In this document: positions 14,135-62,847 of the stretch, one piece after another
Position numbering within the stretch: the first letter of the stretch is position 1
Layout of the letters: every line of letters begins with the position of its first letter
NCBI GenBank assembly: GCA_964454165.1
Contig: CAYVQJ010000084.1
Span: 44,077-108,076 of the forward strand
Origin: an uncultured Myxococcales bacterium
GTDB lineage: Bacteria > Myxococcota_A > UBA9160 > SZUA-336
Reading direction: 5' to 3'
Length of the DNA stretch: 64,000 nucleotides
Made by a program: the position numbers and the translations under genes
Notes under the pieces: model-generated
Database searches by the model: none
Told to the model about the DNA's origin: nothing
What the model saw: the letters and a program-made list of their open reading frames with translations, nothing else

Positions 14135-14471
14135 CGAGCACTACCTCGCCGGCCAGCGCGTGCCGGAGGAACGGAAGGGAGCGCAGCCGCTCGAACTCGT
14201 CGGGCGTATAGCACAGCAGATCGGCGTCGACCGACAGCGCGAGAAGCGAATAGAGCTGCTCCAGGCGCTTGGCGATGGGCAGACTCGTCTCCATCACCAC
14301 GAGGATGTCGAGATCGGTCAGCAGATCCGCGCGCCCGCGTGCATACGAGCCGAACAGGCTCACGCGGCGGACGTCCGAGCGCGCGCCGAGGCGCTCGCGA
14401 ACCACGCTCACCGCTTCCTCGAGACGGCGCCGGTACGCCGCTCGCTTCTGACTCAGCCCGTGCTCCATCAT
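14115..14471 (-). CDS. minimal nucleotidyltransferase (MNT), antitoxin-type partner of HEPN
   Basis: [21 protein letters not shown] = GS-x-ARG...D-x-D nucleotidyltransferase motif. Confidence 0.85.
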
Positions 14472-14514
14472 CGCAGCCCTTCTGGATCTGCACCGAAGGT
14501 AGCGAGCAGCCCCT

Positions 14515-23871: not shown

Positions 23872-24592
23872 ACGCGAGTGTCGCGAGAAGCGCGCTGGTC
23901 CACTGCGCCTCGCTGAGCCCGAGCGCCAGCGGCCGGGCGGTGCGCACGAACTCGATCGCGAAGCGCGCGGCGGCGGCGAGGGCGAGATAGCGCATGAAGA
24001 TCTCGCCGTCCCTCGCGACGCGGGAGCGCGCCCGCCAGAGCGCGCCTGCGATCGCGAGCAGCGCGAGCAGCTCGTAGAGGGCAGCGGGATGCACGCGCAC
24101 TCCGGCCGGATGCGGCCAGCCCGCGACCGCGTTCACGTACGCGACGCCCCACGGGAGCTGCGTCGGGGTCCCCCAGTCGCCGTCGCCCGCGAGGTGGCAG
24201 CCGATCCGCCCGATGGCGAGCCCGACCGCGAGGGCGGGCGCGGCGCTGTCAGCGGCGGAGAGCCAGCGCACGCGGTAGCGGCGGATCGGCCAGCCGGTCG
24301 CGAGCACTCCACCGAGAAGCCCCCCGTACCAGACCAATCCCGACCCGCTCGCGACGAAGCCGACGGGATCGGCCGCGAACGCCTCGGGGTGCTGGAACGC
24401 GAGGTGGATCCGCGCACCGACGAGCCCCCCGACCAGGCCGCATAGCACGATCCACCACGCCAGCTCCGCCGGCACCTGCTTGCGCCGGAAGTCTGCGTGC
24501 ATCACGAGCCCACCGGCGAGGAACGCGAGCGAGAGCATCAGCCCGAAGGACTGGATGGCGACCCCGCGGATCTCGAGCAGTACCGGAAGCAC
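23813..24592 (-). CDS. lgt: prolipoprotein diacylglyceryl transferase
   Basis: WYGGLLGG and GRIGCHLAGDGDWG (Lgt signature G-R-I-G-N-F-I-N-G-E-like). GTG 24592 with AGGAA RBS 11 nt upstream; 3' end overlaps the ligase start region. Confidence 0.8.
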   Translation of the reverse strand: MLPVLLEIRGVAIQSFGLMLSLAFLAGGLVMHADFRRKQVPAELAWWIVLCGLVGGLVGARIHLAFQHPEAFAADPVGFVASGSGLVWYGGLLGGVLATGWPIRRYRVRWLSAADSAAPALAVGLAIGRIGCHLAGDGDWGTPTQLPWGVAYVNAVAGWPHPAGVRVHPAALYELLALLAIAGALWRARSRVARDGEIFMRYLALAAAARFAIEFVRTARPLALGLSEAQWTSALLATLACVWLASTDQRRRSPGRARG

Positions 24593-27727: not shown

Positions 27728-27787
27728 CCGCGTCACGTGCTGCTCGGTCCGACCACTCTCGTAACGAGAGTTGAAGCCGGAGCGGCA

Positions 27788-30700
27788 GTGAGTCGAGTCC
27801 TGATCGCGCTCCTCGTGATCGCAATGAGCGCGCCGGCCGGCGCGGCGCTGGTTCCCTACGAGGCAGTCGACGGCAGCGCCGGGACTGCGCGCGGCAACAA
27901 CCTGGTGGACGTGACCGCCACCAACGCGTGTGGGTTCACCATCGTCGCCGGGAACATCAACCTGACGGGCTGCCGCGACCGCAACGGGGTGCTGTGCCCC
28001 ACGAACGCTGCGTGCGACCTGGACCGCGTGCCCGCCGGGCGCTGCACGCTCGGCAACAATGCCGCGTGCCTGTGGCCGAACGGCGCCGGGTTCTGCACCG
28101 CCGATGGCAACGTCGGCTGCCTGGTGAACCTCGACTGTACGAACAAGGGACTCGCGGGCACCTGCGACACCAGCCAATGCCCGGGCGGAGACTGCAGCGG
28201 GTGCGCCTGCCAGGGCACCGACGACACTCTTGCAACGTTCGAGACGAACGCCGGGCGCTGCGGCGGAACCATCGGTGTCTGTTCCGACGGAGACAGCGAG
28301 TTCGCATACGCACCCTCGATCTCCGGCGGGCTCTGCTTCAACCTCGTCGCGCCTACGGACCGGCCGTTCAACTGCGGTCTCGAGGCGGGCCAGGCGCTGA
28401 CGGGAGCGCGCTCGTCCTTCGAGAATCCCCCGATCTCGCCGTCGCTACAGCGCGAGTCGCCCGCGGGTCCGATCGTCGAGCTGCGCACGACGCAGGTGTA
28501 CGACATCGGGGCCCTGGAACCCGGGCGCGGCAGCATCCGCCGCTTCTCGCTGCTGGCGGATTCCTACTGGGAGGATCCGACCTGGTCGGACAAGACCCTG
28601 ACGGGCGCTGCGGCGAACGCGCACATCTGGACCCTGTGGTGCGACACGCCGACGGGCTGGTCGACGGACGACAACCTGCCGAATGGGCAGAGCTGCTGGA
28701 ACTCGACGGCCAACTCGATCGGATACATCTGGACCCAGGACGTTCCGGCCAACGACTTCCTTCCAGCCGGGTCGCTCACGACGAACCTCGATGTCGACAT
28801 GAACGGTGTCGCGGATTGCCCGCCGCACTGCGGTTTGAACTACGACCTGCACACGTTGGAGCAGCTCGCGCTCGAGGCCGTGCTTCGCCTCGACGTACGT
28901 GCGGGAGCTCAGCTCGCGCTGGAGTCGTTCGTCGATGGCCCGGCGGGCGCGGGAGATCTGGTCGCGGTCGCGAGCGTCGTCAGCCACGTGTGGCTGCCCG
29001 CGATCGATCAGCGCTGCTGGATGGGCGGCGATCCCGAGGCCATCTGCTCGACCTGCGTGGGCGGCCTTTGCAGCGGCTACCTGGCGCTCAGCTGCACCGT
29101 GGGCCGCGACTGTGCGCTCTACACCGGACGCTGTAGCGACAGCGAGCAACCCTGCAACCCGGCCGGCGCCGGCACGGCGTGCCCGGGCGCACAGCTCTGC
29201 CGCTCCTGCGTAGGCGTATTCGCGAGCGGGCTGTGCGTCGGCATCGGCGGCGCCTGCCGTCTCGACTCCGACTGCGCCAACAACAACTGCGGCGACCAGA
29301 ACGGAAACAACATCTATCCGGAGCCGACCGCCCACAACCCGCTCGCGATCCCGGTCGGCTACAACACCTACGGCTTCGCCGAGCTCGAGCTCGAGACCAG
29401 GTGCAACCCGACCCGCCCCGGGCGCCTCGGCCTGGTCACCCACTTCGGACGAGCACTGGCGGCGCCGCTCGCGCTGCTGGTGACGACCGGCGCTGCCGCA
29501 ACCGAGGTGCGCGATCCCGACCTGGGGGGCGCTCCAGCTCCGAATGACACCGGCGCTCTAGGCCTTGTGAGTGGCGCAGCGGTCGGAATCGCAGCTTGGG
29601 GTGGCTATCCCCTGGAAAACGGCAGCTACGCGGTCGGAACGGTGTTTCCCGTCGATCCGACCGGTCCGCCGTGCTGCGCTGCCACGGGAAACGTGACCGG
29701 CGTGCTCGACAAGGCGACGGAGAGCGTGCGACCCGTGATCACGGAGAATGCCGGCGCGATCACCTGGCCCGAGGGGAGCGCTGGGTCGGTACAGACAGCG
29801 CCGTTGCGCACCTCGGGCTGGGGAGGCGGAGCGAACCGAACCCCCGGCTGCCCCGGGGACAGCTCGCTCGTCGGCGCGCCCGCGCCGGATCCCGGACCGT
29901 GCAACGATCCTCTCGGGGGATCGTCGTTCTGTACCGGCGGCGACTGCGAAGGCAACACCGGCGCGGACGACGTGCGCACCACGGCGACGATCGGCGGTGT
30001 GGCGAATGTCCCTGCGCTCAACGCCCGGGCGAAGGTCCCCGACCGGTTCGCGACGGGAACCTCGGCCCCGACGCTCTACGGTGTGGCCACATTCACGGGC
30101 CTGGACGTGGACGTGCTCTCGCCGAGCGACACGGATTTCTCGGCCGCTGTCGAACTCCTGCACTGCCCGATGATCGGCGCGTGCAGCGAGGCGCCGACGC
30201 AGGACTGCATCCGCGACGCGGATTGCGGTGCGGGAAACACCTGCCTGAACCGCGTCAAGCGCTGCGTGACGCTGGAGCCCGACTGCGAGGACCCCGACAT
30301 GGATGGGGTCTACGTGTGCGCCGGGGGTGACAACTGCCCCGATAGGTTCAATCCCGACCAAGCGAACTTCGAAGGAGACGCGCTCGGCGACGCGTGCGAT
30401 GCCTGTGAGACGGTCGTGAACGCCGGCGTGGACACCGACATGGACGGGGTGGACAACGCGTGCGACACCTGCACCAACCAGGGGAACCCGCAGCTCGCCG
30501 GGACGCCGGTGCTGAACCGCACCTTCGTCAGCCACCAGCGCGACGACGACGCGGACGGCCGCGGCAACCGCTGCGACTTCGACTACAACAACACGGGCGT
30601 TGCGATCACCGCCGGGGACTTCAACGACATGAAGTTCTCGCTGCTTCCGAGCTCGGGTTTCACTGCGCTGAACACTTGCGGCGCCACGACGGCCGAGGGT

Positions 30701-30946
30701 GGATCGGGCGCCACGCAGCCGTGCGGCGAGTTCGATCACGACGGCATGGGTTCGACGGTCAGCGCCGGAGATTTCAACCTGTCGAAGGCGGCCGTTGCGG
30801 CAGGCGGTGTGATCAACACCAACTTCCCGAAGTGCACGGCCTGCACAGTCGGCACTGGCTGGTCGAATGTGATCGGCCCGGGAGCTCGCCTCGGGCGGCC
30901 GGTCTGCCAGACCGCCGTCCCCGGGCGCTGCGTCTTCGCGCCTTGA
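27788..30946 (+). CDS. large secreted Cys-rich protein with thrombospondin type-3-like calcium-binding repeats and a conserved ~200-aa C-terminal domain
   Basis: GTG 27788 with GGAG RBS; signal peptide VSRVLIALLVIAMSAPAGAA; many D-x-D-x-D-G-x-x-D-x-C repeats (DPDMDGV, DTDMDGVDNACDTC, DDDADGRGNRCDFD). The C-terminal domain is shared with the 57808-59724 paralog. Confidence 0.75.
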   Translation: MSRVLIALLVIAMSAPAGAALVPYEAVDGSAGTARGNNLVDVTATNACGFTIVAGNINLTGCRDRNGVLCPTNAACDLDRVPAGRCTLGNNAACLWPNGAGFCTADGNVGCLVNLDCTNKGLAGTCDTSQCPGGDCSGCACQGTDDTLATFETNAGRCGGTIGVCSDGDSEFAYAPSISGGLCFNLVAPTDRPFNCGLEAGQALTGARSSFENPPISPSLQRESPAGPIVELRTTQVYDIGALEPGRGSIRRFSLLADSYWEDPTWSDKTLTGAAANAHIWTLWCDTPTGWSTDDNLPNGQSCWNSTANSIGYIWTQDVPANDFLPAGSLTTNLDVDMNGVADCPPHCGLNYDLHTLEQLALEAVLRLDVRAGAQLALESFVDGPAGAGDLVAVASVVSHVWLPAIDQRCWMGGDPEAICSTCVGGLCSGYLALSCTVGRDCALYTGRCSDSEQPCNPAGAGTACPGAQLCRSCVGVFASGLCVGIGGACRLDSDCANNNCGDQNGNNIYPEPTAHNPLAIPVGYNTYGFAELELETRCNPTRPGRLGLVTHFGRALAAPLALLVTTGAAATEVRDPDLGGAPAPNDTGALGLVSGAAVGIAAWGGYPLENGSYAVGTVFPVDPTGPPCCAATGNVTGVLDKATESVRPVITENAGAITWPEGSAGSVQTAPLRTSGWGGGANRTPGCPGDSSLVGAPAPDPGPCNDPLGGSSFCTGGDCEGNTGADDVRTTATIGGVANVPALNARAKVPDRFATGTSAPTLYGVATFTGLDVDVLSPSDTDFSAAVELLHCPMIGACSEAPTQDCIRDADCGAGNTCLNRVKRCVTLEPDCEDPDMDGVYVCAGGDNCPDRFNPDQANFEGDALGDACDACETVVNAGVDTDMDGVDNACDTCTNQGNPQLAGTPVLNRTFVSHQRDDDADGRGNRCDFDYNNTGVAITAGDFNDMKFSLLPSSGFTALNTCGATTAEGGSGATQPCGEFDHDGMGSTVSAGDFNLSKAAVAAGGVINTNFPKCTACTVGTGWSNVIGPGARLGRPVCQTAVPGRCVFAP

Positions 30947-36669: not shown

Positions 36670-37848
36670 CGCCTTCGGCTCCGGCTTCGTCGGGGTCTGG
36701 TTGCTCGGCAGGTTGTAGTGGGAGACGTCGATCTCCTCGAGCTCGATCTCGCGCGCGAGCACGCGCTCCTTCCAGGCGAGAAGCTCGGGGTGGCGCGCCT
36801 GGAACTCGGGCATCACCTCGCGGCCGAACAGCTCGAGCGAGGAGCAGATGTCCTCGTGCGTGTTGTTGCCGGCCTGGTTCAAGAGGATCACCTGATCGAC
36901 GTGCGACTCCTCGAAGCGATGCAGGCGCTCGCGCAGCGTGGCCGGTGAGCCGATCAGCGCGGTCCCGCGCCGGCGCTGGCCTTCCGGCGACTGCTTCCAC
37001 TGGAGGTACTCGTTCCACAGGTTCACGGTGCCGGGCTTCACCGGGCCGTGGCGGTTGTAGAAGAGCAGCGCGAACTGGAAGAAGGTCCAGCCTTCGGCCT
37101 TGCGCTCGGCTTCCTGGTCGGTCTCGGCGCACATGAAGCCGGACACGACCGCGATCTGCGGATTGGTCTGGTAGTCGCAGAGCTTCTCGAGGCGGCGGGT
37201 GTAGGCGTTGTAGTAGCAGTGCACCCAGGCCTTCGCGGCGTCGGCGCTCATGAACTGGAAGCCGAGCACGCCGAGGCCGCGGCGTCCCGCCATCTCGATC
37301 GTGTCGAGCTGCGAGCACGCGACCCAGAGCGGCGGGTGCGGGCGCTGCAGCGGCTTGGGCAGCACGTTGCGCAGCGGGAAGTCGAAGTACTCGCCGTGGT
37401 ACTCCCAGCCTTCGCTCCAGAACATGGGCAGCGTCGCGCGCACGGCGTCTTCCCAGACCGCGCGCTTGTCGCGGAATTTGCGGCCGAACGGATGCAGCTC
37501 GGTCACGCTCGAGCCTTCGCCGATGCCGAGCTCGACGCGCCCGTGCGAGACCAGGTCGAGCGTCGCGACGCGCTCGGCCACGCGCGCCGGATGGTTCGTG
37601 GTGAGCTGGACGATCCCGTGCCCGAGGCGGATGCGCTTCGTACGCTGGCTCGCCGCCGCCAGGAACACCTCGGGAGCCGACGAGTGCGAGTACTCCTCCA
37701 GGAAGTGGTGCTCCACCTCCCACGCGTAGTCGTAGCCAAGCCCGTCGGCCAGCTCGATCTGGTCCAGCGAGTGCTGCAGCAGCCGGTACTCGCTGCCCTC
37801 GTCCCAGGGGCGTGGAATCTGGTGCTCGTAGAAGATCCCGAACTTCAT
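36655..37848 (-). CDS. LLM-class flavin-dependent oxidoreductase
   Basis: MKFGIFYEH..., luciferase-like TIM-barrel pattern; 3' end overlaps the convergent hydrolase by 15 nt. Confidence 0.85.
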   Translation of the reverse strand: MKFGIFYEHQIPRPWDEGSEYRLLQHSLDQIELADGLGYDYAWEVEHHFLEEYSHSSAPEVFLAAASQRTKRIRLGHGIVQLTTNHPARVAERVATLDLVSHGRVELGIGEGSSVTELHPFGRKFRDKRAVWEDAVRATLPMFWSEGWEYHGEYFDFPLRNVLPKPLQRPHPPLWVACSQLDTIEMAGRRGLGVLGFQFMSADAAKAWVHCYYNAYTRRLEKLCDYQTNPQIAVVSGFMCAETDQEAERKAEGWTFFQFALLFYNRHGPVKPGTVNLWNEYLQWKQSPEGQRRRGTALIGSPATLRERLHRFEESHVDQVILLNQAGNNTHEDICSSLELFGREVMPEFQARHPELLAWKERVLAREIELEEIDVSHYNLPSNQTPTKPEPKASASA

Positions 37849-37987
37849 GCTGCCTCCGGCGTCCGGCGCCGCGGCCATTCTAGGCAGCGCGCCCGCGATC
37901 TCGGGAAAGTTCCCGCCTGTGGGGAGTTCCCGGCACTACGGGAAGGGCGTAAGATCCGCGCGCCTGAAACACGTTCTAGGGTGCTGG

Positions 37988-40273
37988 ATGCTGCGTTGGC
38001 TGTGGATCTCGTGTGTGCTGATGGTGCCCCTGCCGGTGGCTGCGGCGCGCTTGATCCTGAACGAGCTGAACGCGGTCAGCGCCAGCAACTACCTGTACGG
38101 AGGCACCGCAGCCGCTGATGAATCGGGTGGTCAGGCGGCCGATCCGTTCTTCGGGCGCAGCCTCGGAAATGGTGGCGACTGGCTCGAGCTGGTCGCGATC
38201 GGCGATGGGCTGGACGTCCGGGGCTGGACGCTCGACTTCTACGAGCTGGGCGTATTCCGGACCCGCCTGACACTCTCCTCGAGCCCCCTCTGGGGGAACC
38301 TCGCGGCGGGCACGCTGATCACGATCGCAGAGGACGTGCCCGAGGACGCGGGCTACGACCCCGCGGCCGGCGACTGGTGGATCCAGGCACGGGCCGGGAC
38401 GGCGGGCGGCGGCGCGCTCGTGAGCGCCCTCGACTTTCCGGCCTCGCACGACGACTGGCAGCTCGTGATCCGCGACGCGGCCGGGAATGGGGTCTTCGGC
38501 CCCGTGGGCGAGGCCATCGCCGGCGCCGGCGTGAACTCGCGCGAGACCTTCCGGCTCGAGGCGGATCCGAGCGCGATCGTCGCCCCGAGCTCGGCGAGCT
38601 ACAACGACGCGGTCTCGAGCTCGTTCGGCGCGCCGAACCTCTACGCCGCGGGAGCGGTCACGCAGGACTTCTCCGCGCTGCGCCTGGGACTCCCGCTGCC
38701 CGACCAGGACGGCGACGGCGTCGCCGACGACGGCGACTTCTCCGGGATCGCCGGCGACGCGCCCTGCGCGACGAATGCCGGGACAGGCTGCGACGACAAC
38801 TGCCCCGTCTTCGGGAACCCCGGCCAGGGAGATACCGGAGTGGTCGGCGGCGCGGGGTCGGACGGCCGCGGCGACGCCTGCCAGTGCGGCGACGTGAACG
38901 ACGACGGCGCGGTCACCGCCAACGACGCGTCCGATCTGCGCGCCTGGCTGGCGTCGGCGCTGGCGCCGCTCCCGGGTGTGTCGAAGTGCGGCGTCGTGAA
39001 CGACGGCCGTTGCAGCGTGGCGGACGCGAGCGTGCTCCAGCGCACGACGCTCGCCGGCCTCGGTCCCGCGATCGCGCCCGTGTGTCTCGCAGCGACGCCT
39101 CCGGCGTCCTCGGCGGACATCTACTTCGACCCGACGCGCGTGCTCGACATCGAGGTCACCATGTCGCCCGCGGACTTCGACACGCTGCGCACGCAGACCC
39201 GGTACATCTACGCGTATCTCTACTCGCCGACCTGCGGCGACGGGCCGTTTCCGAGCCCCTACACCTGGTTCCCCGCGACGGTGCGCGTGGACGGCGTCAC
39301 GGTCCCGCAGACCGGCATCCGCAAGAAGGGCTTCGTCGGGTCGCTCTCCGTGACGAAGCCCGCGCTCAAGCTCGACTTCGGCCAGTACGTCGGCGGCCGC
39401 ACGCTGAACGGCCTCGGCTCGATGACGCTCAACAACGCGCGCCAGGACCCCACGTACCTGAAGCAGTGCCTCGGCGCGATGATGCTCTCCGACGCCGGCT
39501 TGCCGGTCGGGCGCTGCAGCTTCGCGAACGTACGCGTGAACGGCGAGAACCTGGGCCTCTACGTGCACGTCGAGGAGTACAAGACGCCGTTCCTCACGCG
39601 CGCCTTCGGGAGCGCGGCCGGCAAGCTCTACGAGGGCACGCTCTCCGACTTCTGGCCCGGCGAGTGGCGCAACACCTTCGAGATCGAAGGTGCAGCAGCG
39701 GCCGACACGACCGAGCTCGACGCGCTGGTCGACGCGCTCCAGCTCCCCGACGGACAGGTGCTGCCGGCAGTCGAGGCGCTGGTGGACGTGCCCGCGTTCA
39801 TCGACTTCTGGGCCGCGAGCGCCTTGATCGGGGACTGGGACGGCTACACCAACAACCAGAACAACTTCTGGATCTACCTGCGCCCGGGCCAGGGGCGCTT
39901 TCATTTCCTGCCGTGGGGTATCGACGACGTGCTGGGTCGCGGCAATCCCGCCTTCTACGAGGACGCGGTGAACGCGCCCGCCGTCGTGCCGCGCTCGACG
40001 CTCGCGCGCCGGCTGTACGGTCAGCTCGACACCCAGATCGCGTTCATCGCGCGTCTCGTTTACCTGGCGCAGTCGGTGTGGAATCCGGTGCGCTATCTGG
40101 CGGAGATCGATCGCATCCAGGCGCTGATCACGCCGTACACGGGCGACCTCACGGCTTCACTCGTGCCGGTCCGCCAGTGGATCGCGCTACGACAGGGGCG
40201 GGTCGAGGCGGAGCTCGCCAACGGTCCCCCCGTCTGGTCCGAGGACCAGCGCGATCATCCCTGCGTGTACTGA
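37988..40273 (+). CDS. CotH kinase-family protein with N-terminal lamin-tail domain and dockerin/thrombospondin-like Ca-binding repeats
   Basis: Signal peptide MLRWLWISCVLMVPLPVAAA; LTD pattern (LILNELNAV...GDWLELV); DQDGDGVADDGD and CGDVNDDGAVTANDASDL repeats; CotH core (FWIYLRPGQGRFHFLPWGIDDVLG). Confidence 0.8.
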   Translation: MLRWLWISCVLMVPLPVAAARLILNELNAVSASNYLYGGTAAADESGGQAADPFFGRSLGNGGDWLELVAIGDGLDVRGWTLDFYELGVFRTRLTLSSSPLWGNLAAGTLITIAEDVPEDAGYDPAAGDWWIQARAGTAGGGALVSALDFPASHDDWQLVIRDAAGNGVFGPVGEAIAGAGVNSRETFRLEADPSAIVAPSSASYNDAVSSSFGAPNLYAAGAVTQDFSALRLGLPLPDQDGDGVADDGDFSGIAGDAPCATNAGTGCDDNCPVFGNPGQGDTGVVGGAGSDGRGDACQCGDVNDDGAVTANDASDLRAWLASALAPLPGVSKCGVVNDGRCSVADASVLQRTTLAGLGPAIAPVCLAATPPASSADIYFDPTRVLDIEVTMSPADFDTLRTQTRYIYAYLYSPTCGDGPFPSPYTWFPATVRVDGVTVPQTGIRKKGFVGSLSVTKPALKLDFGQYVGGRTLNGLGSMTLNNARQDPTYLKQCLGAMMLSDAGLPVGRCSFANVRVNGENLGLYVHVEEYKTPFLTRAFGSAAGKLYEGTLSDFWPGEWRNTFEIEGAAAADTTELDALVDALQLPDGQVLPAVEALVDVPAFIDFWAASALIGDWDGYTNNQNNFWIYLRPGQGRFHFLPWGIDDVLGRGNPAFYEDAVNAPAVVPRSTLARRLYGQLDTQIAFIARLVYLAQSVWNPVRYLAEIDRIQALITPYTGDLTASLVPVRQWIALRQGRVEAELANGPPVWSEDQRDHPCVY

Positions 40274-47554: not shown

Positions 47555-48424
47555 CTAACTCGTGCGGCGGCGCAGGGCGGCGAGGCCAGCGAGGCCGAGG
47601 CCGAGCAGCAGGACCGAAGACGGCTCCGGAATCGGATCCGAGTCGGTCATGAAGCGCTGCTCGATCACGCTGATGTGCGCGATCCCGTGCCCGATCCCGA
47701 TCCCGTCCCGGTTGCGGATGAAGCGGCGCCAGTTGCACCAGCAATCGCCTTCGCCGCCGCAATCGCCGTCGTGGTCCCACTCATCATCGCCGTCCCCATC
47801 GTGCTCCGAGCCGCGGGCATGGCGCTGCCACCCCGGCGGAACCTCGCCGTCCCAGCCGTGGTGCTCGCCGCGCTCCCAGCCGTAGTGATTGCCCTGGTCC
47901 TCGTGGCGCCGTCGCCGGACGCTCTCGAGCAGGATGTCCTTGGTGACGTGCAGCGTGTTCGCGCCGTCGCCGAGGCTCGCGCTATCGCTCGTCCGCGTGG
48001 AGGTGCGGGTGTCGAACACGCCGAGCGCCACCCCGGGAAATTCGTCGATGGTCTCCGCGATCGAAGCCGAGGAGTTGCCGCCGGCAGCGAAGCCCGTGAA
48101 TGCGAGCTCCACCGCCACGATTCGGTCGCTCGAGGTCACGGTGTAGTCGAGGACGATGTCGAGCGTCTTTCCCCGGGTGACGACGATGGGGCCCACCAGC
48201 CGGAAGCCGTCGTGGTCGAACTCGATCTCGATCAGATCGATGTCGAAGCTCCGGGTGCCCGTCACGGTCACCGAGAAGTCCGAAAAGCTGAGGTTGCTGC
48301 CCTCGGCGGAGAAGGTCCCCGGGCTGCCGTTTACGTCGCTGAGCGACAGCGCTCGCGCGAGCGAAGGGTCAAGGGCAAGAAGGCAGACGAATAGCCCAAC
48401 GAGATGATTCCACCGGTTTCGCAC
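47555..48424 (-). CDS. PEP-CTERM sorting-domain secreted protein with His/Asp-rich region
   Basis: C-terminus PIPEPSSVLLLGLGLAGLAALRRRTS = PEP motif + TM helix + Arg cluster. Signal peptide from VRNRWNHLVGLFVCLLAL (GTG 48424). HEDQGNHYGWERGEHHGWDG...EHDGDGDDEWDHDGDC acidic/His-rich stretch. Confidence 0.7.
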   Translation of the reverse strand: MRNRWNHLVGLFVCLLALDPSLARALSLSDVNGSPGTFSAEGSNLSFSDFSVTVTGTRSFDIDLIEIEFDHDGFRLVGPIVVTRGKTLDIVLDYTVTSSDRIVAVELAFTGFAAGGNSSASIAETIDEFPGVALGVFDTRTSTRTSDSASLGDGANTLHVTKDILLESVRRRRHEDQGNHYGWERGEHHGWDGEVPPGWQRHARGSEHDGDGDDEWDHDGDCGGEGDCWCNWRRFIRNRDGIGIGHGIAHISVIEQRFMTDSDPIPEPSSVLLLGLGLAGLAALRRRTS

Positions 48425-48548
48425 GCTCCTGCATCTCCCTGTAACCCTCCAGGGAAAGCGCGAGCTCCAGAAGCGCGCGAATCGGGCGGGGTCCCGCGCA
48501 AACGGAAACCCCAACCTTCATGGGTACAGTAACCGAAACCGGGGTCTG

Positions 48549-56381: not shown

Positions 56382-56990
56382 ATGTCGATCCTGGTGGCGC
56401 GGCACGGCGAGACGGAGCTGAATGCCGCGCGCGTGCTGCAGCACCCGGGCACGCCGCTCTCGCAGCGCGGGATCGCACAGGCGGATCGCCTCGCGGAGCG
56501 GCTCGAGCCGCTCGGCGTGGAGCGCATCCTGTCGAGCGACTACGCGCGTGCGCGCATGACCGCGGAGCGGCTCGCGGCGCGCTTCGGGGTGCCGATCGAA
56601 GTCGATCCGCTGCTGCGCGAGCGCAACTTCGGCGACGTGCGCGGCCGACCGTACAGCGAGCTGCCGCCAGACCTGTTCGGACCCGATTACGAACCGCCCG
56701 GTGGCGAGACCTGGGCCCAGTTCTTCGGGCGCGTCGATGCAGCCTGGCAGCGCGTCGCGCGCGTCGCGAGCGCCACGCCGGGGAATCTCGCGGTGATCAC
56801 GCACGGTCTGGTCTGCGCCGGATTCGTCGAGCGCCACCTGCGTCGGCCCGACGCTGCACCGACCCCGCGCGGCTGGGGCAACACATCACTGACGATCGCC
56901 GAGAGCGCTCCCCCCTGGGCCATCCGTGTCTTGAACTGCACCGCTCACCTCGACGCCGCGACCCTCGCCCCCGAGGGCGGCCGCGCCTAG
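56382..56990 (+). CDS. histidine phosphatase (phosphoglycerate-mutase-like) family protein
   Basis: N-terminal ILVARHGETELN = RHG catalytic motif. Confidence 0.85.
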   Translation: MSILVARHGETELNAARVLQHPGTPLSQRGIAQADRLAERLEPLGVERILSSDYARARMTAERLAARFGVPIEVDPLLRERNFGDVRGRPYSELPPDLFGPDYEPPGGETWAQFFGRVDAAWQRVARVASATPGNLAVITHGLVCAGFVERHLRRPDAAPTPRGWGNTSLTIAESAPPWAIRVLNCTAHLDAATLAPEGGRA

Positions 56991-57193
56991 AGAGGCGGCA
57001 GCTCCGATGCGAGGCTCGAGCCTTGCGGCCGTGCCAGGACGGTGGCCTTGGAACGGCAGGTTGCCACCGAATTGCAGCTTGACTTTCTCACTTGAACTCG
57101 CGACAAGAGTTGCAGAGCCAGATCGAGGCCGCATGGCGTCGGTCGGCACTCGGCGGCATCAAGGAAATGACCGGGCGCCGGGAGGTAGAGGGA

Positions 57194-57811
57194 ATGGAGA
57201 GAGGACTGATTCGCGATCTGCGGGTGTACCTTGTCGCTGCCGCGCTGGGCACGCTAAGCGGTGGATTCGCGTCGGCACAAGACAATCAGCCGCAGGGCCC
57301 CCAGCTCCCGAAGGCGGCACTCAGCACCTCAAGCGGCGCAGCCTCTGCCCCCGCGCCTCGACCAAGAGAGCTCACGCTTCCGAAGAGGGGGGTTCTTCGT
57401 AGCGCCACTATCGTCGGCCGCAGCGGGGACCCGATCGAGCTAGAGGCGTTGTCGGAGAGCGACCGGCAGCAGGTCCTACGAAGCCTCGGTGCCGGGATGT
57501 CCCCGAGCGAGATCGACCAGCATCGAGCGTACGTCGCTGACCTCTACCAACTCGGCGGGATTTCGCAGGGTACGTGGGAATACACAGCCGGGCGCCAGTG
57601 CATGTACGGACCAGCACCAGCGCCGGTGGGTGTGACAGAGGACAAGCTCAAGAGGATCGTGGACCAGAACCGCAACCTCCCCGCCCGCGACCTGTGGAAG
57701 TTGGTGATGTCACTGCCTCCGGAGACACCGACCACGGCGGAACCCCGCCCCTTGATCGTCCGCCTCGGCGCGCCCGACGGCCCGAATTGCGTGGGACTCT
57801 CCGAGCGGTGA
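57194..57811 (+). CDS. secreted hypothetical protein (lower-GC islet)
   Basis: RBS GGGAGG before ATG 57194; signal peptide MERGLIRDLRVYLVAAALGTLSGGFASAQD. ~63% GC vs ~72% background; stop overlaps the next start (GTGA). Confidence 0.5.
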   Translation: MERGLIRDLRVYLVAAALGTLSGGFASAQDNQPQGPQLPKAALSTSSGAASAPAPRPRELTLPKRGVLRSATIVGRSGDPIELEALSESDRQQVLRSLGAGMSPSEIDQHRAYVADLYQLGGISQGTWEYTAGRQCMYGPAPAPVGVTEDKLKRIVDQNRNLPARDLWKLVMSLPPETPTTAEPRPLIVRLGAPDGPNCVGLSER

Positions 57812-59724
57812 TTTACGTCCTCCTCTTCGCAATCGGTGCGTTGTTGCCGCTGAGCGCTCGCGCCGAATGCACTTCTGACCCATGGATCGACGGGCTGCGG
57901 CTTCCGGGCCTCGGAGGGCGACAATTCCCTGCGTTGACGAGCTTCGGCGTTATCGGATTAGTTCCAAACGCGCCCACGCCACTTCAGTGGGGGGACGCTC
58001 GCGTGTGGGCCGAGTCTGTCTTCGTACATGACGACCCTTTCTCCGTGACCTGGCAAGACTCAGCGTGCTGTATCTGGTTCACGAATCCCATTCCAGTTGG
58101 GACCTTTACTGACCCCTATTGCACGTTCATCGACGCTGTAAGCAATGAGGTTTGCACCCCCGGGTACGATGGCTGGATCGTAGTTGTCTCTGGGTGGGAC
58201 TTTACTTGGTGCCCGGGGACGGACATGTGCCTGGCCGACGCTGCCGACGGAAGCCGTGTGCTGTACGTAAAGGCCGGCTCGCTTCCGTACAGCCCGCCGG
58301 AATCTGGTCTCGGAAACGTCGTAGCTACGGGCATCGGCTGGCTGTTCGCTGGGCTGCCGTTCTCCCAGTTCATTGACGACACCATGCTCTCCCTCGCCGC
58401 CAGCGATGAGGGGAACGAGACGATCACGGTCTCTCAGTGTGCCGCGCTTCGGGGTGGGATGGGACGCGAACTTGGAACAACGTGCCTTTGCGCTCTCGAT
58501 CCGATCCCAAGCGTACCACCGAATAACGGTGCACCGTGCCAGTGCCCGTACTTCGAGCAGCCTCCCCAGGTGTGGGCCTGCCTCGACGGCAGGTGCACGA
58601 CGTTCTACGAAGTTCCGGCGCCGGATTGCCTGTGCATGTTGGGCGACAGCGACAGCGACGGAATCTGCAGCAATGGTGATTGCATCGGTGGCGCTTGCAC
58701 GGCGACGTCGTTTGAAGTCGCCCCGGAAAATCCTCGATGCGCCTGTCTGAACGGGATGTCAGAGGGACCTGGCGGTGTACCGCCGCCCCCCTGCGACGAT
58801 AACTGCAGGTCTGTGTCGAACGGAGGGCAAGCGGATCAAGATAACGACCAGGTCGGCGATGCGTGCGACAACTGCCCGAGCTTCTACAACAGCGACCAGG
58901 TGAACCGCCACGGGGGCGGGCCTGGGGATGCGTGCGACGACCCCGATGGGGATGGGTTAACCGACAAGACTGAGCTGACATCCTCCCTAACTAACCCGGA
59001 CGATGCTGATACAGACAATGACGGGATCGTTGATGGGATCGAATTTCTGGGACCGGACGGAAGCCCCGGGACAGGAGATGAGTCCAACCCACTGCTGAGT
59101 GACTCGGACGGGGATTCAGTTCCAGACGGGACGGACAACTGCCGCACGATCGCGAACGTGTCGCAAGCGAACTTCGACGGGGATGCGCTGGGAGATGCCT
59201 GCGACGCGTGCGCCACTCTCGCCGATCTCGGCACGGACCCAGATATGGACGGGGTCGACTCCGCATGTGACACGTGCACGTCCACTTTTAATCTGAGACT
59301 GCAGGGTACGCCCGGCGCGAACCGGACGCGCATGAGTGGCCAGGCAGATGACGATGCGGATGGCCGCGGTAACTCGTGTGACTTCGACTACGATAATGCC
59401 GGTGCTGTGATCATTGCGGCTGATTTCAATCAGATTAAGGCGTCTGTAGGTAAACTCGTATCTGCGTCGAATTGCGGTGCCGCACCCACGGATAACCAAC
59501 GCTGTGGCGAGTTCGACCACGATCAGGCGGGAGCGGCCGTGAGTGCCGGCGACTTCAACCAGGCAAAGGGCGCCGTGGGGAAGGTGATTAGTACAACGTA
59601 TCCGAAATGCGCAGCGTGCAGTGTCGGCACCGGCTGGTCTAATGTGCTTGGCAGCGGCGGCGAACGAATCGGTCGACCGGTCTGTGAATCGGCGGTTGCC
59701 GGTGCCTGCCAGTATGCGCCGTAG
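57808..59724 (+). CDS. secreted Cys-rich thrombospondin-type-3-repeat protein; paralog (C-terminal ~200 aa) of 27788-30946
   Basis: Signal peptide VIYVLLFAIGALLPLSARA. TSP3-like DxDxDG repeats. C-terminal domain near-colinear with the 27788 gene (NFDGDALGDACDAC...DDDADGRGNSCDFDYDN...CGEFDHD...AGDFNQAK...CAACSVGTGWSNVLG...GRPVCESAVAGACQYAP). ~57-58% GC. Confidence 0.7.
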   Translation: MIYVLLFAIGALLPLSARAECTSDPWIDGLRLPGLGGRQFPALTSFGVIGLVPNAPTPLQWGDARVWAESVFVHDDPFSVTWQDSACCIWFTNPIPVGTFTDPYCTFIDAVSNEVCTPGYDGWIVVVSGWDFTWCPGTDMCLADAADGSRVLYVKAGSLPYSPPESGLGNVVATGIGWLFAGLPFSQFIDDTMLSLAASDEGNETITVSQCAALRGGMGRELGTTCLCALDPIPSVPPNNGAPCQCPYFEQPPQVWACLDGRCTTFYEVPAPDCLCMLGDSDSDGICSNGDCIGGACTATSFEVAPENPRCACLNGMSEGPGGVPPPPCDDNCRSVSNGGQADQDNDQVGDACDNCPSFYNSDQVNRHGGGPGDACDDPDGDGLTDKTELTSSLTNPDDADTDNDGIVDGIEFLGPDGSPGTGDESNPLLSDSDGDSVPDGTDNCRTIANVSQANFDGDALGDACDACATLADLGTDPDMDGVDSACDTCTSTFNLRLQGTPGANRTRMSGQADDDADGRGNSCDFDYDNAGAVIIAADFNQIKASVGKLVSASNCGAAPTDNQRCGEFDHDQAGAAVSAGDFNQAKGAVGKVISTTYPKCAACSVGTGWSNVLGSGGERIGRPVCESAVAGACQYAP

Positions 59725-59787
59725 ACTGGGGGACGTCCGATGCACGGATGGTGGGGTGCATACCTCAGCACCTCGATCGGCTGCTCC

Positions 59788-60875
59788 TAGTGTCCCGCAA
59801 CTGAAGTTGGGTGAATTAACTTCGAGTCTGGCCCGTCCCCCATGCGAGCTGCTCTCATGGAGGACCACCGATGGCTCGAGGACGACCCAAGGCCCCGCTC
59901 TCGCGCTCGGACGATGAACGTCGCGTGCTCGAGGGCTACACGCGCCAGCGCGAGATCGCCCAGCAACTGGCGCTGCGCGCCCGCATCGTGCTCGGCTGCG
60001 CCGCGGGAGCGGAGAACGAGGCCGTCGGCGAGAAGCTCGGCGTGCATCCCGTGACGGTCGGCGAATGGCGGGCGCGCTTCCTGCGCGACCGGCTCCGGGG
60101 TTTGTCCGACGCACCCCGTTCCGGCGCCCCGCGCAGCATGAGCGACGAGCAGGTGGAGCGCGTCGTGAAGCTCACGCTGGAGGCGACGCCGCGCAATGCG
60201 ACGCTCTCGCTGCAGCCGCATCGCGTCGAGAGCTTCCGGCTCTCCAACGATCCCACCTGAACGGGCGATGGTGCTGTGCGTCGACGAGAAGTCGCAGATC
60301 CAGGCGCTCGATCGCACGCAGCCGATGCTGCCGCTGCGTCCGGGCCAGCCGGGGCGGCGCAGCCACGACTACCGACGCCACGGCACCACCTCGTTGTTCG
60401 CCGCACTCGACGTGGCCTCGGGGTCCGTGCTGGGCAAGTGCTACCGGCGGCACCGCTCCCAGGAGTTCCTCGACTTCCTCAAGCGAATCGACAGCGCCGT
60501 GCCCGTCGGGCTCGACCTGCACCTGATCCTCGACAACTACTCCACGCACAAGACCGAGAAGGTGAGGAGCTGGCTGGCCCGCCATCCCCGCTTCCAGCTG
60601 CACTTCACGCCGACCTACAGCTCCTGGATCAACCTCGTCGAGCGCTTCTTCGCACTGCTCTCGGAGCAGTGGCTCAAGCGCGGCGCGCACCGCAGCACCT
60701 TCGAGCTGGAGCAGGCGATCCTGCACTACATCGAGCATGGCAACCGCAACCCCAAGCCGTTCGTCTGGACCAAGACCGCCGACCAGATCCTCGAGACGAT
60801 CGCCCGCTTCTGCCAGGGCACCCTCGCCGCGCACGCGCCCGATTCACTCAAGCGAACTTCAGGCACGGGACACTA
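59788..60875. mobile_element. IS630-family insertion sequence (~1.09 kb) with imperfect terminal inverted repeats and flanking TA
   Basis: Left end TA|GTGTCCCGcaaCTGAAGTT... at 59788; right end ...AACTTCAGgcaCGGGACAC|TA at 60875 (reverse complement matches the left end 18/22). TA target duplication is typical of IS630/Tc1-mariner. Encodes the two transposase ORFs below. Confidence 0.8.
59871..60260 (+). CDS. IS630-family transposase, N-terminal HTH part (frame 0)
   Basis: HTH region and HRVESFRLSNDP, resembling the conserved IS630 KPHRVETFKLSTDP segment. Appears to lack ~20 aa of the second HTH relative to typical family members (from memory of the family). Confidence 0.7.
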   Translation: MARGRPKAPLSRSDDERRVLEGYTRQREIAQQLALRARIVLGCAAGAENEAVGEKLGVHPVTVGEWRARFLRDRLRGLSDAPRSGAPRSMSDEQVERVVKLTLEATPRNATLSLQPHRVESFRLSNDPT

Positions 60876-60876
60876 G
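60196..60876 (+). CDS. IS630-family transposase, DDE catalytic part (frame +1 relative to N-terminal ORF)
   Basis: VLCVDEKSQIQALDRTQP, ILDNYSTHK, TPTYSSWINLVERFFA = DDE motifs of IS630 transposases. Frame change relative to the N-terminal ORF occurs ~60240-60265. Confidence 0.8.
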   Translation: MRRSRCSRIASRASGSPTIPPERAMVLCVDEKSQIQALDRTQPMLPLRPGQPGRRSHDYRRHGTTSLFAALDVASGSVLGKCYRRHRSQEFLDFLKRIDSAVPVGLDLHLILDNYSTHKTEKVRSWLARHPRFQLHFTPTYSSWINLVERFFALLSEQWLKRGAHRSTFELEQAILHYIEHGNRNPKPFVWTKTADQILETIARFCQGTLAAHAPDSLKRTSGTGH

Positions 60877-60895
60877 GACCTCCGCCGTGGGCGAG

Positions 60896-61765
60896 ATGGA
60901 TGGCAAGCAAGTAGTCGTGACCGGGGCCACGTCCGGGATCGGACGCGTCACCGCGAAGGCGCTCGCGCGCAAGGGAGCCGCGCTTGCGATCGTCTGCCGC
61001 GACGCGGCGAAGGGCCACGCGCTGGCCGCGGAGATCCGCTCCGGCTCGGCCGAGCCGAGGGTGGACGTGTTCTTGGCCGATCTCTCGAAGCAGGCCGACG
61101 TGCGCCGCGTCGCCGTGGAGCTGCTCGAGCGCTGCCCCCGGATCGACGTGCTCGTGAACAATGCTGGCATCGTGAACGTGCGCCGCGAGCTCACCGACGA
61201 CGGTCTCGAGGCGACCTTCGCGACCAATCACCTGGCGTATTACCTGCTCACGCGGCTGCTGCTGGAGCGCCTCGTCGCGTCGGCGCCCGCGCGGATCGTC
61301 AACGTGGCTTCCGACGCGCACCGCTTCGGAACGCTCGACCCTGACGACCTGCAGAACGCGAAGCGCTACCGCAGCATGTCCGTCTACGGCCAGTCGAAGC
61401 TTTGCAATCTGCTGTTCAGCTACGAGCTGGCGCGGCGGCTCGAGGGGACCGGCGTGACGGTGAACGCGCTCCACCCGGGCACAGTGCGAACCGGGCTCGG
61501 GCGCAACAACGGCGGCCTGCTCGGGCTCTTGCCCGCGATCCTCGGGCTCTTCTTCCGCACGCCGGAGAAGGGCGCGCAGACGTCGATCTGGCTGGCCTCG
61601 TCGCCCGACGTGAAGGATGTCTCGGGCAAGTACTTCTACGACCTGCGCGAGCACCGCTCGAACGACGCGTCGCGCGACCGCGAGCTCTCGCGGCGGCTAT
61701 GGGACGAGAGCGCCAGACTCGTCGGGCTTCAGTCGTCCAGCCCCGGCATGCGGACGGGGGCGTAG
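60896..61765 (+). CDS. SDR-family oxidoreductase (retinol-dehydrogenase-like)
   Basis: VTGATSGIG, NNAG, YGQSK (Y-x-x-x-K). The IS630 right end lies ~20 bp upstream of its start codon. Confidence 0.85.
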   Translation: MDGKQVVVTGATSGIGRVTAKALARKGAALAIVCRDAAKGHALAAEIRSGSAEPRVDVFLADLSKQADVRRVAVELLERCPRIDVLVNNAGIVNVRRELTDDGLEATFATNHLAYYLLTRLLLERLVASAPARIVNVASDAHRFGTLDPDDLQNAKRYRSMSVYGQSKLCNLLFSYELARRLEGTGVTVNALHPGTVRTGLGRNNGGLLGLLPAILGLFFRTPEKGAQTSIWLASSPDVKDVSGKYFYDLREHRSNDASRDRELSRRLWDESARLVGLQSSSPGMRTGA

Positions 61766-62847
61766 TAGCGGCGCTCGCCGAGCGCGTCGACGCGCCCCCA
61801 GAACTCGGGACCGCCCGCGGCCATCGGGTCGCCGAGCGCCAGACGCTGCCGGAAGAAGCACCAGCTCTCGGGCCGCAGGCGCACGGCTTCCTCGAGGAAC
61901 GGCGCGGCCTCGGTCGCGCGGCCGTGTGCGTGAAGCCACTGGCCGAGCCGGAAGCTCGCGGTCGCGCGCGCGTCGTCGTTGCTCGGCGCCGCCAGGCGGT
62001 CGCGCGCTTCCGTGGGCGCGACCACGTAAGGGCTCTCCGCCCCGAGCCGCACCCAGTCGCGGATCGCGTCGTGGTACACCGCACGGCGTCGCCCGTACTC
62101 GGCGATCACGTCGGGCGCGAGCGCGAACGTCTTCCGGTCCATCGCGCGGAAGCCGTCGAAGGCGCTCGAGGGCTCGGGCGGGCGCACGATCCGGCCCTGC
62201 TCGTCGATCCAGACTGCGATCGGCACGTTCAGCATGTCGTAGAGCGCCGCGACGCGGTGCTCGCGATCCACGAGCGACGGATGCGTGGGCTTCGCGGCGC
62301 GAATCCACGGGCCCGCTGCGTCGGCTCCGGCGCTATCGAGCGCGACGGTGATCGGGACGAAGCCCTGCGGTCCGAGCTCCGCGTACAGTGCCTGCCACCC
62401 GGGCAGGTCCATGCGGCAGCCTCACCACGAGGCCCAGCTCACCACGATCACCTTCTTGCCGCGGTGATCGGACAGGCGATGCGTGCGGCCGTCCAGGTCG
62501 GGGAGCTCGAAGTCGGGCGCTTCGAGGGACGCGAGCGCGGCGCGCCGGTCCCCGCTGGCTTCCCCGATCGACCACACGTCGCCCGACGTCGTGCGCAGCA
62601 GCGGCTGCCTGCGCTGGCGCGCCAGAGCGGCGAGATCGAAGCTGCGCTCGGGGCCGGCGCCGCGCACGAATTCGGCCTCGCGGCCCCGCGGCAGCGGTAC
62701 GCAGAGCGAGCCGCGGCAGGCGCCCTCGGGCTTCAAGGTCCAGCCGGACGCCACCTCGAGCTCTTCGAGCGGGATCCAGAGCGACTCGCCGTCGACGCGC
62801 GCGCCCTTCGCGTGCCCGGTGCCCTCCTCGTTCAGGATCGTCGTCAT
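61729..62847 (-). CDS. TlpA/redoxin-like thioredoxin-fold protein interrupted by a single in-frame TGA at the active-site Cys position (selenoprotein candidate or pseudogene)
   Basis: ORFs 62422-62847 and 61729-62412 are in the same frame, separated only by TGA at 62422-62424. Read-through gives ...APDFELPDLDGRTHRLSDHRGKKVIVVSWASW-[TGA]-GCRMDLPGWQALYAELGPQGFVPITVALD..., colinear with TlpA/ResA WCxxC proteins. The TGA sits where the first Cys is expected; motif reads W-U-G-C, one residue shorter than canonical. Confidence 0.5.

Follow-up and report, generated by a model that had tools for sequence, protein, structure and literature searches.

A small islet of two predicted secreted-protein genes, probably acquired horizontally, beside an IS630-family element in an uncultured high-GC lineage

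Genomic islets are small horizontally acquired islands of less than 10 kb. The locus described here resembles them in its atypical composition, its presence or absence at a conserved pair of flanking genes, its surface or secreted cargo and the IS lying nearby, but differs in that no integrase, tRNA target, flanking direct repeats or known donor was found, and in that it occupies an operon spacer of about 10 nt. The larger of its two predicted proteins, ORF2, has a likeness to bacterial thrombospondin type 3 (TSP3) proteins, which are secreted and carry Asp-rich, calcium-binding repeats. Thousands of modular TSP3 relatives carry varied N-terminal enzymes; unlike known TSP3 proteins, however, ORF2 has an N-terminal domain and a C-terminal tail that fall outside every library searched. 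It is also distinct from the MtsC-type cell-cohesion protein of myxobacteria (NF047638), against which it scores 81 bits, through the repeat region only, where the cut-off is 350, and it carries neither a MYXO-CTERM nor a PEP-CTERM anchor, its C-terminus (..CQYAP) being devoid of a hydrophobic anchor. The neighboring IS shares with the IS630/Tc1/mariner superfamily an HTH + DDE_3 transposase, short terminal inverted repeats and a TA duplication in CTAG, but this copy, of 1084 bp, differs from the family in that its transposase has suffered two internal deletions and a frameshift. A 2-bp target-site duplication and a CTAG target are described for IS630 (PMC2577343, Table 1).

The window, by which we mean the whole 64-kb stretch of DNA that was analyzed, contains the block of interest between genes for a histidine phosphatase (HisPhos) and a short-chain dehydrogenase (SDR). 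We consider it likely that the sequence from 56991 to about 59789, together with no more than 12 nt on the right of the IS, constitutes a small horizontally acquired islet, and that the IS630 element arrived later and separately. The flanks and the islet are made up as follows:

56382–56990, + strand: HisPhos, left flank (Pfam His_Phos_1, E 2.8e-37)
56991–57193, + strand: non-coding islet leader of 203 nt, starting straight after the HisPhos stop, with no match in the related contigs L082 and L083
57194–57811, + strand: ORF1, an open reading frame for a 205-aa predicted secreted protein (MERGLIRDLRVYLVAAALGTLSGGFASA/QD)
57787–59724, + strand: ORF2, a Cys-rich, predicted secreted TSP3-repeat protein of 645 aa (from TTG 57787) or 638 aa (from GTG 57808)
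57865–58785, + strand: N-terminal domain of ORF2, residues 27–333, with 21 Cys
58786–59322, + strand: putative thrombospondin type 3 repeats of ORF2, residues ~334–512, Asp-rich and calcium-binding (Pfam TSP_3)
59323–59721, + strand: C-terminal tail domain of ORF2, 133 aa, short-loop subtype, delimited by alignments
59725–59789, + strand: spacer of 65 nt after ORF2, GC 63%, ending in the left TA copy at 59788–59789 (cTA)
60896–61765, + strand: SDR, right flank (Pfam adh_short, E 9.5e-37)

A fall in GC content across 57000–59790 had been reported in a preliminary description of this DNA, and calculation bore it out: GC is 62.5% in this interval versus 70.6% on average across the window (sd among 2.8-kb windows, 2.2%), making it the lowest-GC 2.8-kb stretch in the 64 kb, with 300-nt windows inside it ranging from 57 to 67%. 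Windowed GC and codon adaptation, the comparison proposed at that time, both revealed a non-uniform composition. Against a host reference consisting of 35 genes of the window (GC3 mean 0.877, sd 0.046, minimum 0.783), GC3 is 0.757 in ORF1 (z -2.6) and 0.684 in ORF2 (z -4.2), both lower than in every host gene, and a CAI-like index is likewise atypical for both (z -2.6 and -3.2, respectively). The deficit is located at synonymous sites, that is, at codon position 3 (ORF1 has a GC content of 0.69/0.54/0.76 by codon position), while the flanking genes are normal in GC3 (HisPhos 0.877, SDR 0.921). GC is 63.7% over 56991–57194; the leader carries a GGGAGG upstream of the ORF1 ATG, and a promoter and terminator scan of it returned no consensus promoter or terminator. 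An Rfam search gave no match.

Relatives at this locus comprised two short metagenome contigs, of 2.7 and 1.2 kb (L082 and L083; ~80–85% nucleotide identity), in which the gap between the HisPhos TAG and the SDR ATG is 8 nt and 11 nt, respectively, and positions 56991–60887, comprising islet and IS, are therefore absent from them. L082 aligns to 56401–56990 of the window and then jumps to 60888–61797. Its HisPhos is 88% identical at the amino acid level, the blastn alignment stopping at 56990; the TAG stop at 56988–56990 thus supplies the last base in common with the relatives, whose homology, again by blastn, picks up at 60888. SDR amino acid identity is 81% to one related protein (P0126) and 77% to another (P0127). 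The preliminary description had asked whether the region is an insertion between these two genes: relative to both contigs compared it is additional sequence, and the islet is not at the same locus in either. The more distant SDR contigs (outgroups L095 and L096) have no HisPhos neighbor, and a synteny search through the P450 gene yielded 80 loci, at most 65% identical, with no neighbors in common. The best matches of the P450 and SDR genes are to Binatia or Myxococcota-like genomes. L082 also has a deletion near the locus, spanning window positions 61798–62842.

Absence from two relatives might also reflect loss. The cassette could be ancestral to the clade, with a deletion in the one or more lineages leading to L082 and L083; its low GC3 would then have come about because lineage-specific secreted proteins evolve fast under weak constraint. 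The SDR tree does not settle the direction of change: it joins L082 and L083 as sisters in 118 of 200 bootstraps (59%), and as this weakly favors a sister relationship, parsimony does not distinguish one loss from one gain. The other nearby deletion in L082 and the fact that the tail domain is native to the lineage also speak for loss. However, none of the 35 host genes falls below a GC3 of 0.78, whereas ORF1 stands at 0.76 and ORF2 at 0.68; the same tail domain has a GC3 of 0.86–0.94 in a gene upstream in the window and in another contig, L098; and the deletion would have had to leave a tidy spacer of 8–11 nt. We therefore regard loss as unlikely.

In the preferred reading, that of horizontal acquisition, the islet would have been inserted in the ~10-nt spacer of the HisPhos–SDR pair, directly 3' of the HisPhos stop, having entered either through illegitimate recombination or through homologous exchange with a strain in which it was already present. 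Its two cargo genes, ORF1 and the overlapping ORF2 after it, would form an operon in the same orientation as the neighboring genes. The islet ends show no integrase, tRNA gene or significant direct or inverted repeat, the sole mobility gene being that of the separate IS630, and searches produced neither a donor nor a second copy of the cassette. Because the other genes bearing the tail domain lie on high-GC contigs, two of them on a single contig of a relative, the donor was probably a related lineage of lower GC.

That the block carries two secreted-protein genes, as first described, agrees with the signal-peptide-like N-termini predicted for ORF1 and ORF2 by inspection and hydropathy. ORF1, also called as a 205-aa gene in Logan assemblies, belongs to no Pfam or NCBIfam family, and a homologue search among 5.8 billion proteins recovered only ORF1 itself. 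The GTG start of ORF2 at 57808 overlaps the ORF1 stop as GTGA. Its predicted signal peptide ends in ..LSARA/EC, the protein contains 38 Cys, and the NCBI annotation (P0001) covers only its last 499 aa. The N-terminal domain of ORF2 has no Pfam or PDB match, and tblastn retrieved nothing for it in plasmids, phages, IMG/VR or 1.3 Mb of collected loci; both large protein searches were swamped by TSP3 matches, which limits the negative result for this domain. The query of the sensitive search was residues 1–438, which include the first TSP3 repeats, and all 150 listed matches were TSP3 proteins (ORF2 itself among them). Among the matches listed, those other than ORF2 itself cover only residues past ~330. 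An AlphaFold model of the domain was too poor for a fold search (pLDDT 35.8). For the repeats, 10,828 representative proteins match ORF2, and all 149 of the listed non-self matches do so via residues 334–438. PF02412 (Pfam TSP_3) is carried by nearly all listed homologues, and ORF2 itself scores 20.9 bits against it (E 2.8e-4; cut-off 25).

Taken together, the atypical synonymous codon usage, the absence of the block in two relatives and the lack of detected relatives for ORF1 and the ORF2 N-terminal domain support the horizontal acquisition proposed in the preliminary description. That the locus is an ordinary small acquired islet, a delimited gene gain, is well supported.

The features of the element that adjoins the islet are:

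59790–60873, + strand: IS630-family element of 1084 bp, with IRL at 59790–59808 and IRR at 60855–60873
59871–60260, + strand: orfA (HTH; PF13565, E 5.9e-10)
60262–60876, + strand: orfB (DDE_3; PF13358, E 9e-24), in a different reading frame from orfA, the frame being open from 60196
60874–60875, no strand: right copy of the TA target duplication, in the context TAg; without the IS the sequence reads cTAg

An IS630 element beginning at 59788 had been proposed. Its identity was substantiated by the HTH and DDE_3 domains, the inverted repeats and the TA duplication, but its start lies at 59790, as the TA at 59788–59789 is the target duplication. The terminal inverted repeats are 19 nt long and agree at 16 of these positions (0 matches expected from chance), and orfB scores 163 bits against the NCBIfam model transpos_IS630 (NF033545; cut-off 100). 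Positions 79–144 of that profile are absent from the transposase; relative to an intact 361-aa IS630 transposase, 24 aa are gone at one point, and about 15 aa are gone, together with a frameshift, at another. Judged from these two internal deletions, the element is evidently a decayed copy with a disabled transposase and, given the deletions and the frameshift, should be incapable of moving unaided. Neither further copies of the deleted variant beyond this locus nor a second IS630 copy within the 64-kb window were detected, and orfA was found only here. TA is present on both sides of the element, at 59788–59789 (cTA) and 60874–60875 (TAg), and since this duplication within CTAG is intact, it points to simple transposition into continuous sequence rather than to a recombination scar.

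These features bear on whether the cassette was carried in or picked up by the IS630, the two moving as a single unit through one-ended or composite transposition into the CTAG at the HisPhos stop, or whether the islet recombined at a resident IS, which would amount to the IS-mediated rearrangement that the preliminary description had offered as an option. Such a role would account for the position of the IS, ~12 nt or less from where the block missing in the relatives ends on the right, for the TA flanking 56990–60873 on both sides (in the HisPhos TAG on the left and at 60874–60875 on the right) and for the 5-mer CCTAG at both 56986–56990 and 59786–59790. However, every TAG stop contains TA, so the outer "duplication" is nearly uninformative, and the IS has a complete TA/CTAG signature of its own at 59788 and 60875. 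Furthermore, the left end of the islet is unlike either IS end: its IRL score is below that of nearly all shuffles, and the sole IRR match, found by eye, is a 7-mer ~40 nt inside the islet. Finally, GC3 differs strongly between islet and IS, the latter being host-like (0.86 and 0.93), and the window holds only this single, internally deleted copy. IS-mediated capture is therefore not supported, and we judge any such role improbable; the IS630 is best seen as a bystander beside the islet and not as its vehicle. Following acquisition of the islet, it would have transposed alone, entering a CTAG that lies 64 nt past the end of ORF2 and ~20 nt before the SDR start, duplicated the TA and then decayed via the two internal deletions. 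Its closeness to the right end of the inserted block (~12 nt or less) fits chance in an intergenic space of 85 nt, although this by itself does not prove independence.

The preliminary description also regarded ORF2 as a xenolog-like copy of a gene about 30 kb upstream:

27737–30946, + strand: upstream gene with a C-terminal module in common with ORF2, its tail (30518–30943) being of the long-loop subtype

The near-colinearity of the two C-termini is real (58% identity over 217 aa, E 2e-65), and this is the best match of ORF2 in the window, with a GC content of 61.2% in the homologous segment of ORF2 versus 67.0% in that of the upstream gene. The idea of a copy is right in part: no more than these ~210 C-terminal residues are shared, synonymous sites are saturated (pS 0.74), and the ORF2 tail belongs to the other subtype. 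That tail consists of two D-x-D..G..DFNxxK loops followed by a Cys-rich end (..PKCAAC..GRPVC..C.YAP). It is 67% identical to the tail of a gene on L098 (g352, 14243–15301), with which it shares three indels and groups, and 59–61% identical to four long-loop tails, including 61% to that of the upstream gene. No Pfam or PDB match was obtained for it, its AlphaFold model was too poor for a fold search (pLDDT 31.8), and a metagenome scan with a tail profile recovered one true relative only (L087, on a 1.5-kb contig). Both tail subtypes occur on one relative's contig, and the split between them therefore predates these genomes. The upstream gene has a host-like GC3 of 0.855 and a full-length orthologue (P0002, 69% identical), and g352 has a GC3 of 0.94; the low GC3 of ORF2 is thus not a property of the tail domain. 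The proposed comparison of substitution rates between the two tails gave a dN of 0.32, a saturated dS and a nominal dN/dS of ~0.1, which marks ORF2 as a real gene under constraint.

It is consequently very improbable that ORF2 arose by in-genome duplication of the 3' part of the upstream gene joined to new sequence, with the islet representing a local rearrangement. The identity of 58% over 217 aa would favor this, but the saturated synonymous sites, the tail tree, which places ORF2 nearer to g352, the prior split of the subtypes and a GC3 difference of 0.2 all oppose it. A chimera created during assembly or binning, with its join at the repeated IS, is conceivable in a metagenome-assembled contig with an IS at one edge of the islet but extremely improbable, as the HisPhos–ORF1 junction (L001, L085) and the ORF2–IS–SDR junction (L084) each recur with 100% identity in independent unitigs of three sequencing runs and are therefore not an assembly artefact.

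With the islet taken as horizontally acquired, ORF2 is probably located outside the cell or on its surface, with the tail acting in attachment or targeting. Genes bearing the tail elsewhere lie on high-GC contigs and have unrelated N-terminal domains, the cargo fused to it comprising a thermolysin-like protease, a 900-aa Cys-rich domain, a 170-aa domain and the ORF2 N-terminal domain. More speculatively, and in our view rather doubtful, this rare, lineage-restricted tail might be a new C-terminal module that comes in two subtypes and serves in attachment or targeting; through it, the islet would deliver new cargo to a surface-display system of the host, with ORF1 as a dedicated partner. The two D-x-D..G..D-F-N-x-x-K loop-helix motifs of the tail resemble the calcium loops of dockerins and EF-hands by eye only; neither tail matched Dockerin (PF00404) up to an E-value of 10, and the resemblance is a lead, not a result.

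The islet challenges no current idea. It offers a clean, fully delimited case in which an uncultured high-GC lineage has probably gained genes recently, with the insertion point narrowed to an operon spacer of 10 nt and the neighboring IS a bystander, and it adds two predicted secreted proteins, mostly without detectable relatives, and a rare C-terminal domain to characterize.

As the preliminary description had proposed, GC content falls across the stretch from 57000 to 59790 (the islet), in which two predicted secreted-protein genes, ORF1 and ORF2, follow a histidine phosphatase gene (HisPhos) and precede an IS630 element (the IS) and a short-chain dehydrogenase gene (SDR). Sliding GC is 70–75% up to ~56950, 57–67% over 57000–59800, and ~70% again by 60900; at 62.5%, the islet is the lowest among all 2.8-kb windows of the 64 kb (mean 70.6%, sd 2.2%). 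The anomaly sits in the third codon position, GC1 and GC2 of the two genes being unremarkable: GC3 is 0.757 in ORF1 and 0.684 in ORF2, versus a mean of 0.877 in 35 host genes (sd 0.046, minimum 0.783), and is normal in the flanking HisPhos (0.877) and SDR (0.921) genes. Codon adaptation is likewise atypical, a CAI-like index referenced to the window's own genes giving z-scores of -2.6 and -3.2 for ORF1 and ORF2. The features of the locus are as follows, with ORF2 residues counted from TTG 57787:

56382–56990, HisPhos
57194–57811, ORF1, 205 aa
TTG 57787 (645 aa) or GTG 57808 (638 aa) to 59724, ORF2
ORF2 residues 27–333, N-domain with 21 Cys
ORF2 residues about 334–512, thrombospondin type 3 (TSP3) repeats, Asp-rich, calcium-binding type
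ORF2 residues 513–645, C-terminal tail, 133 aa
59790–60873, IS630 element, 1084 bp

Both genes are predicted to encode secreted proteins, in line with the initial reading: ORF1, with GGGAGG 5' of its ATG, has a signal-peptide-like N-terminus ending ASA/QD, and the hydrophobic leader of ORF2 ends ..LSARA/EC with either start. The GTG start of ORF2, which is the gene call in the Logan assemblies, overlaps the ORF1 stop as GTGA. The NCBI record (P0001) comprises the last 499 aa of ORF2, starting at an internal ATG, so that the signal peptide is lost together with about 146 residues; the longer form is supported by the Logan call (638 aa) and by a coding-type GC pattern at 57808–58224. ORF1 and the ORF2 N-domain are without detectable relatives, no Pfam, NCBIfam or PDB match was found for ORF1, the N-domain or the tail, and neither of two structure predictions gave a usable model.

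Relatives were found with a fused HisPhos+SDR query and their contigs then retrieved; the close SDR relatives are P0126 (81%) and P0127 (77%). On the first relative's contig, L082 (GC 74%), bases 1–590 correspond to 56401–56990 (85% identity) and bases 600–1510 to 60888–61797 (82% identity). Since only 8 nt in L082 and 11 nt in the second contig, L083, separate the HisPhos TAG from the SDR ATG, 56991–60887, that is, islet and IS, is missing from both relatives examined. This puts the insertion point in the operon spacer, immediately 3' of the HisPhos stop codon. Each junction is matched at 100% identity by unitigs of three sequencing runs, so an assembly chimera is excluded.

Beyond SDR, two called ORFs at 61729–62847 (minus strand; 141 and 227 aa) form one frame with a single in-frame TGA (62422–62424) within a redoxin-type motif, ..VVSWASW-[TGA]-GCRMDLPGW.. 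(AhpC/TSA start); this frame of 373 codons probably encodes a thioredoxin-fold protein that contains selenocysteine. A hairpin found 16 nt 3' of the TGA, CCUGCC-CGGGU-GGCAGG, has a folding energy no better than shuffled (z -0.2), and an Rfam search at this gene gave no match. L082 has only a 21-aa remnant of it (1477–1563 versus window 61798–62842), a second presence/absence difference directly right of SDR; the 3' part is kept in L083. Across the wider window (37832–40273 and 21505–24132 among others), envelope and secreted functions are abundant; they include a CotH-domain protein, a protein with Wzy_C and TPR domains, an MMPL transporter and a PLD-like protein.

The IS630 element reported on the right of the islet is confirmed by 19-nt terminal inverted repeats, by TA on each side (context cTA...TAg), a 2-bp duplication in CTAG being typical of IS630 (PMC2577343, Table 1), and by a transposase divided into orfA (HTH) and orfB (DDE_3). 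Of the NCBIfam model for IS630, only positions 2–78 and 145–296 are matched. An alignment to the complete, 361-aa IS630 transposase of a Roseomonas plasmid reveals 24 aa missing in frame (HWSSRGMARASGLSVSTVQRIWRA) and about 15 aa missing with a shift of reading frame; with these two losses the copy is defective. Its GC3 is host-like (0.86 and 0.93), the window holds no second copy, and the orfA variant is on record at this locus only. Unitigs break inside the element in two of the three runs (L001 ends at 60298, L085 ends at 60367, L086 starts at 60764), which hints at related IS630 copies elsewhere in the genome or community.

The suggestion that this element captured or rearranged the islet is very improbable. 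CCTAG is present at both 56986–90 and 59786–90, and the whole block is bracketed by TA; however, TA occurs in every TAG stop codon, and excising the IS in silico restores a continuous cTAg, so that the flanking sequences were contiguous when it inserted and it represents a simple insertion, not a recombination joint. Moreover, the left edge of the islet is similar to neither end of the IS, and no significant inverted repeats were found at the islet termini. The CCTAG at the HisPhos stop (left islet edge) and at the left IS edge may have arisen by chance. This stop reads gcgTAG in both relatives versus gccTAG in the window, creating CTAG. Because all genes from P450 to SDR are co-directional, transcription could plausibly read through them, and the IS could plausibly be polar on SDR.

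The ORF2 C-terminus had been described as a diverged duplicate of that of an upstream gene (27737–30946, plus strand). The likeness stands, at 58% identity over 217 C-terminal residues, and with saturated synonymous sites (pS 0.74) and a dN of 0.32 the split is old and under purifying selection. Most of the >1000 database matches to ORF2 are to the TSP3 repeats only; the rare 133-aa tail was found in six proteins: ORF2, the upstream gene, its full-length orthologue P0002 (69% identity), P0010 (thermolysin-like N-terminus plus tail), one on contig L087, and a 352-aa gene at 14243–15301 of L098, the contig of P0002. When the six tails were aligned, ORF2 grouped with the L098 gene (67% identity, three common indels), while the other four formed a long-loop group, each 59–61% identical to ORF2. 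Given this grouping, and both subtypes occurring on a single relative's contig, we rejected the ORF2 tail as a copy of the upstream gene; by sequence, it is a parallel subfamily native to the broader lineage. A host-related donor of lower GC would fit. On L098 (10001–15301; a JGI relative's contig), P0002 (long-loop) and the 352-aa gene (short-loop) flank a 199-aa protein whose C-terminal end is PEP-CTERM-like by eye (..TPEPAAMVFLGLGFASLAFLRRHAA); the proximity of the two tail-bearing genes indicates that the family tends to cluster. In the window, 47555–48517 (minus strand) encodes a PEP-CTERM protein.

The SDR tree leaves the sisterhood of L082 and L083 unresolved and the HisPhos neighbour is missing in more distant SDR contigs, so that parsimony alone has no power to separate gain from loss. 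We consider it likely that the islet was gained rather than lost, because of its synonymous-site composition, the absence of detectable relatives of ORF1 and the ORF2 N-domain, the tidy 8–11 nt spacer in both relatives, and a tail-domain GC3 of 0.86–0.94 in every other gene that could be examined. Of the two origins first offered, horizontal acquisition is therefore retained and IS-mediated rearrangement is not: the islet is real and well delimited, and is probably a recent horizontal gain adjoining an unrelated, decayed IS630 element. From their architecture, we infer that ORF1 and ORF2 would be exported and co-translated with one another; ORF2 would bind calcium outside the cell or at its surface, and its tail may serve in attachment or targeting.
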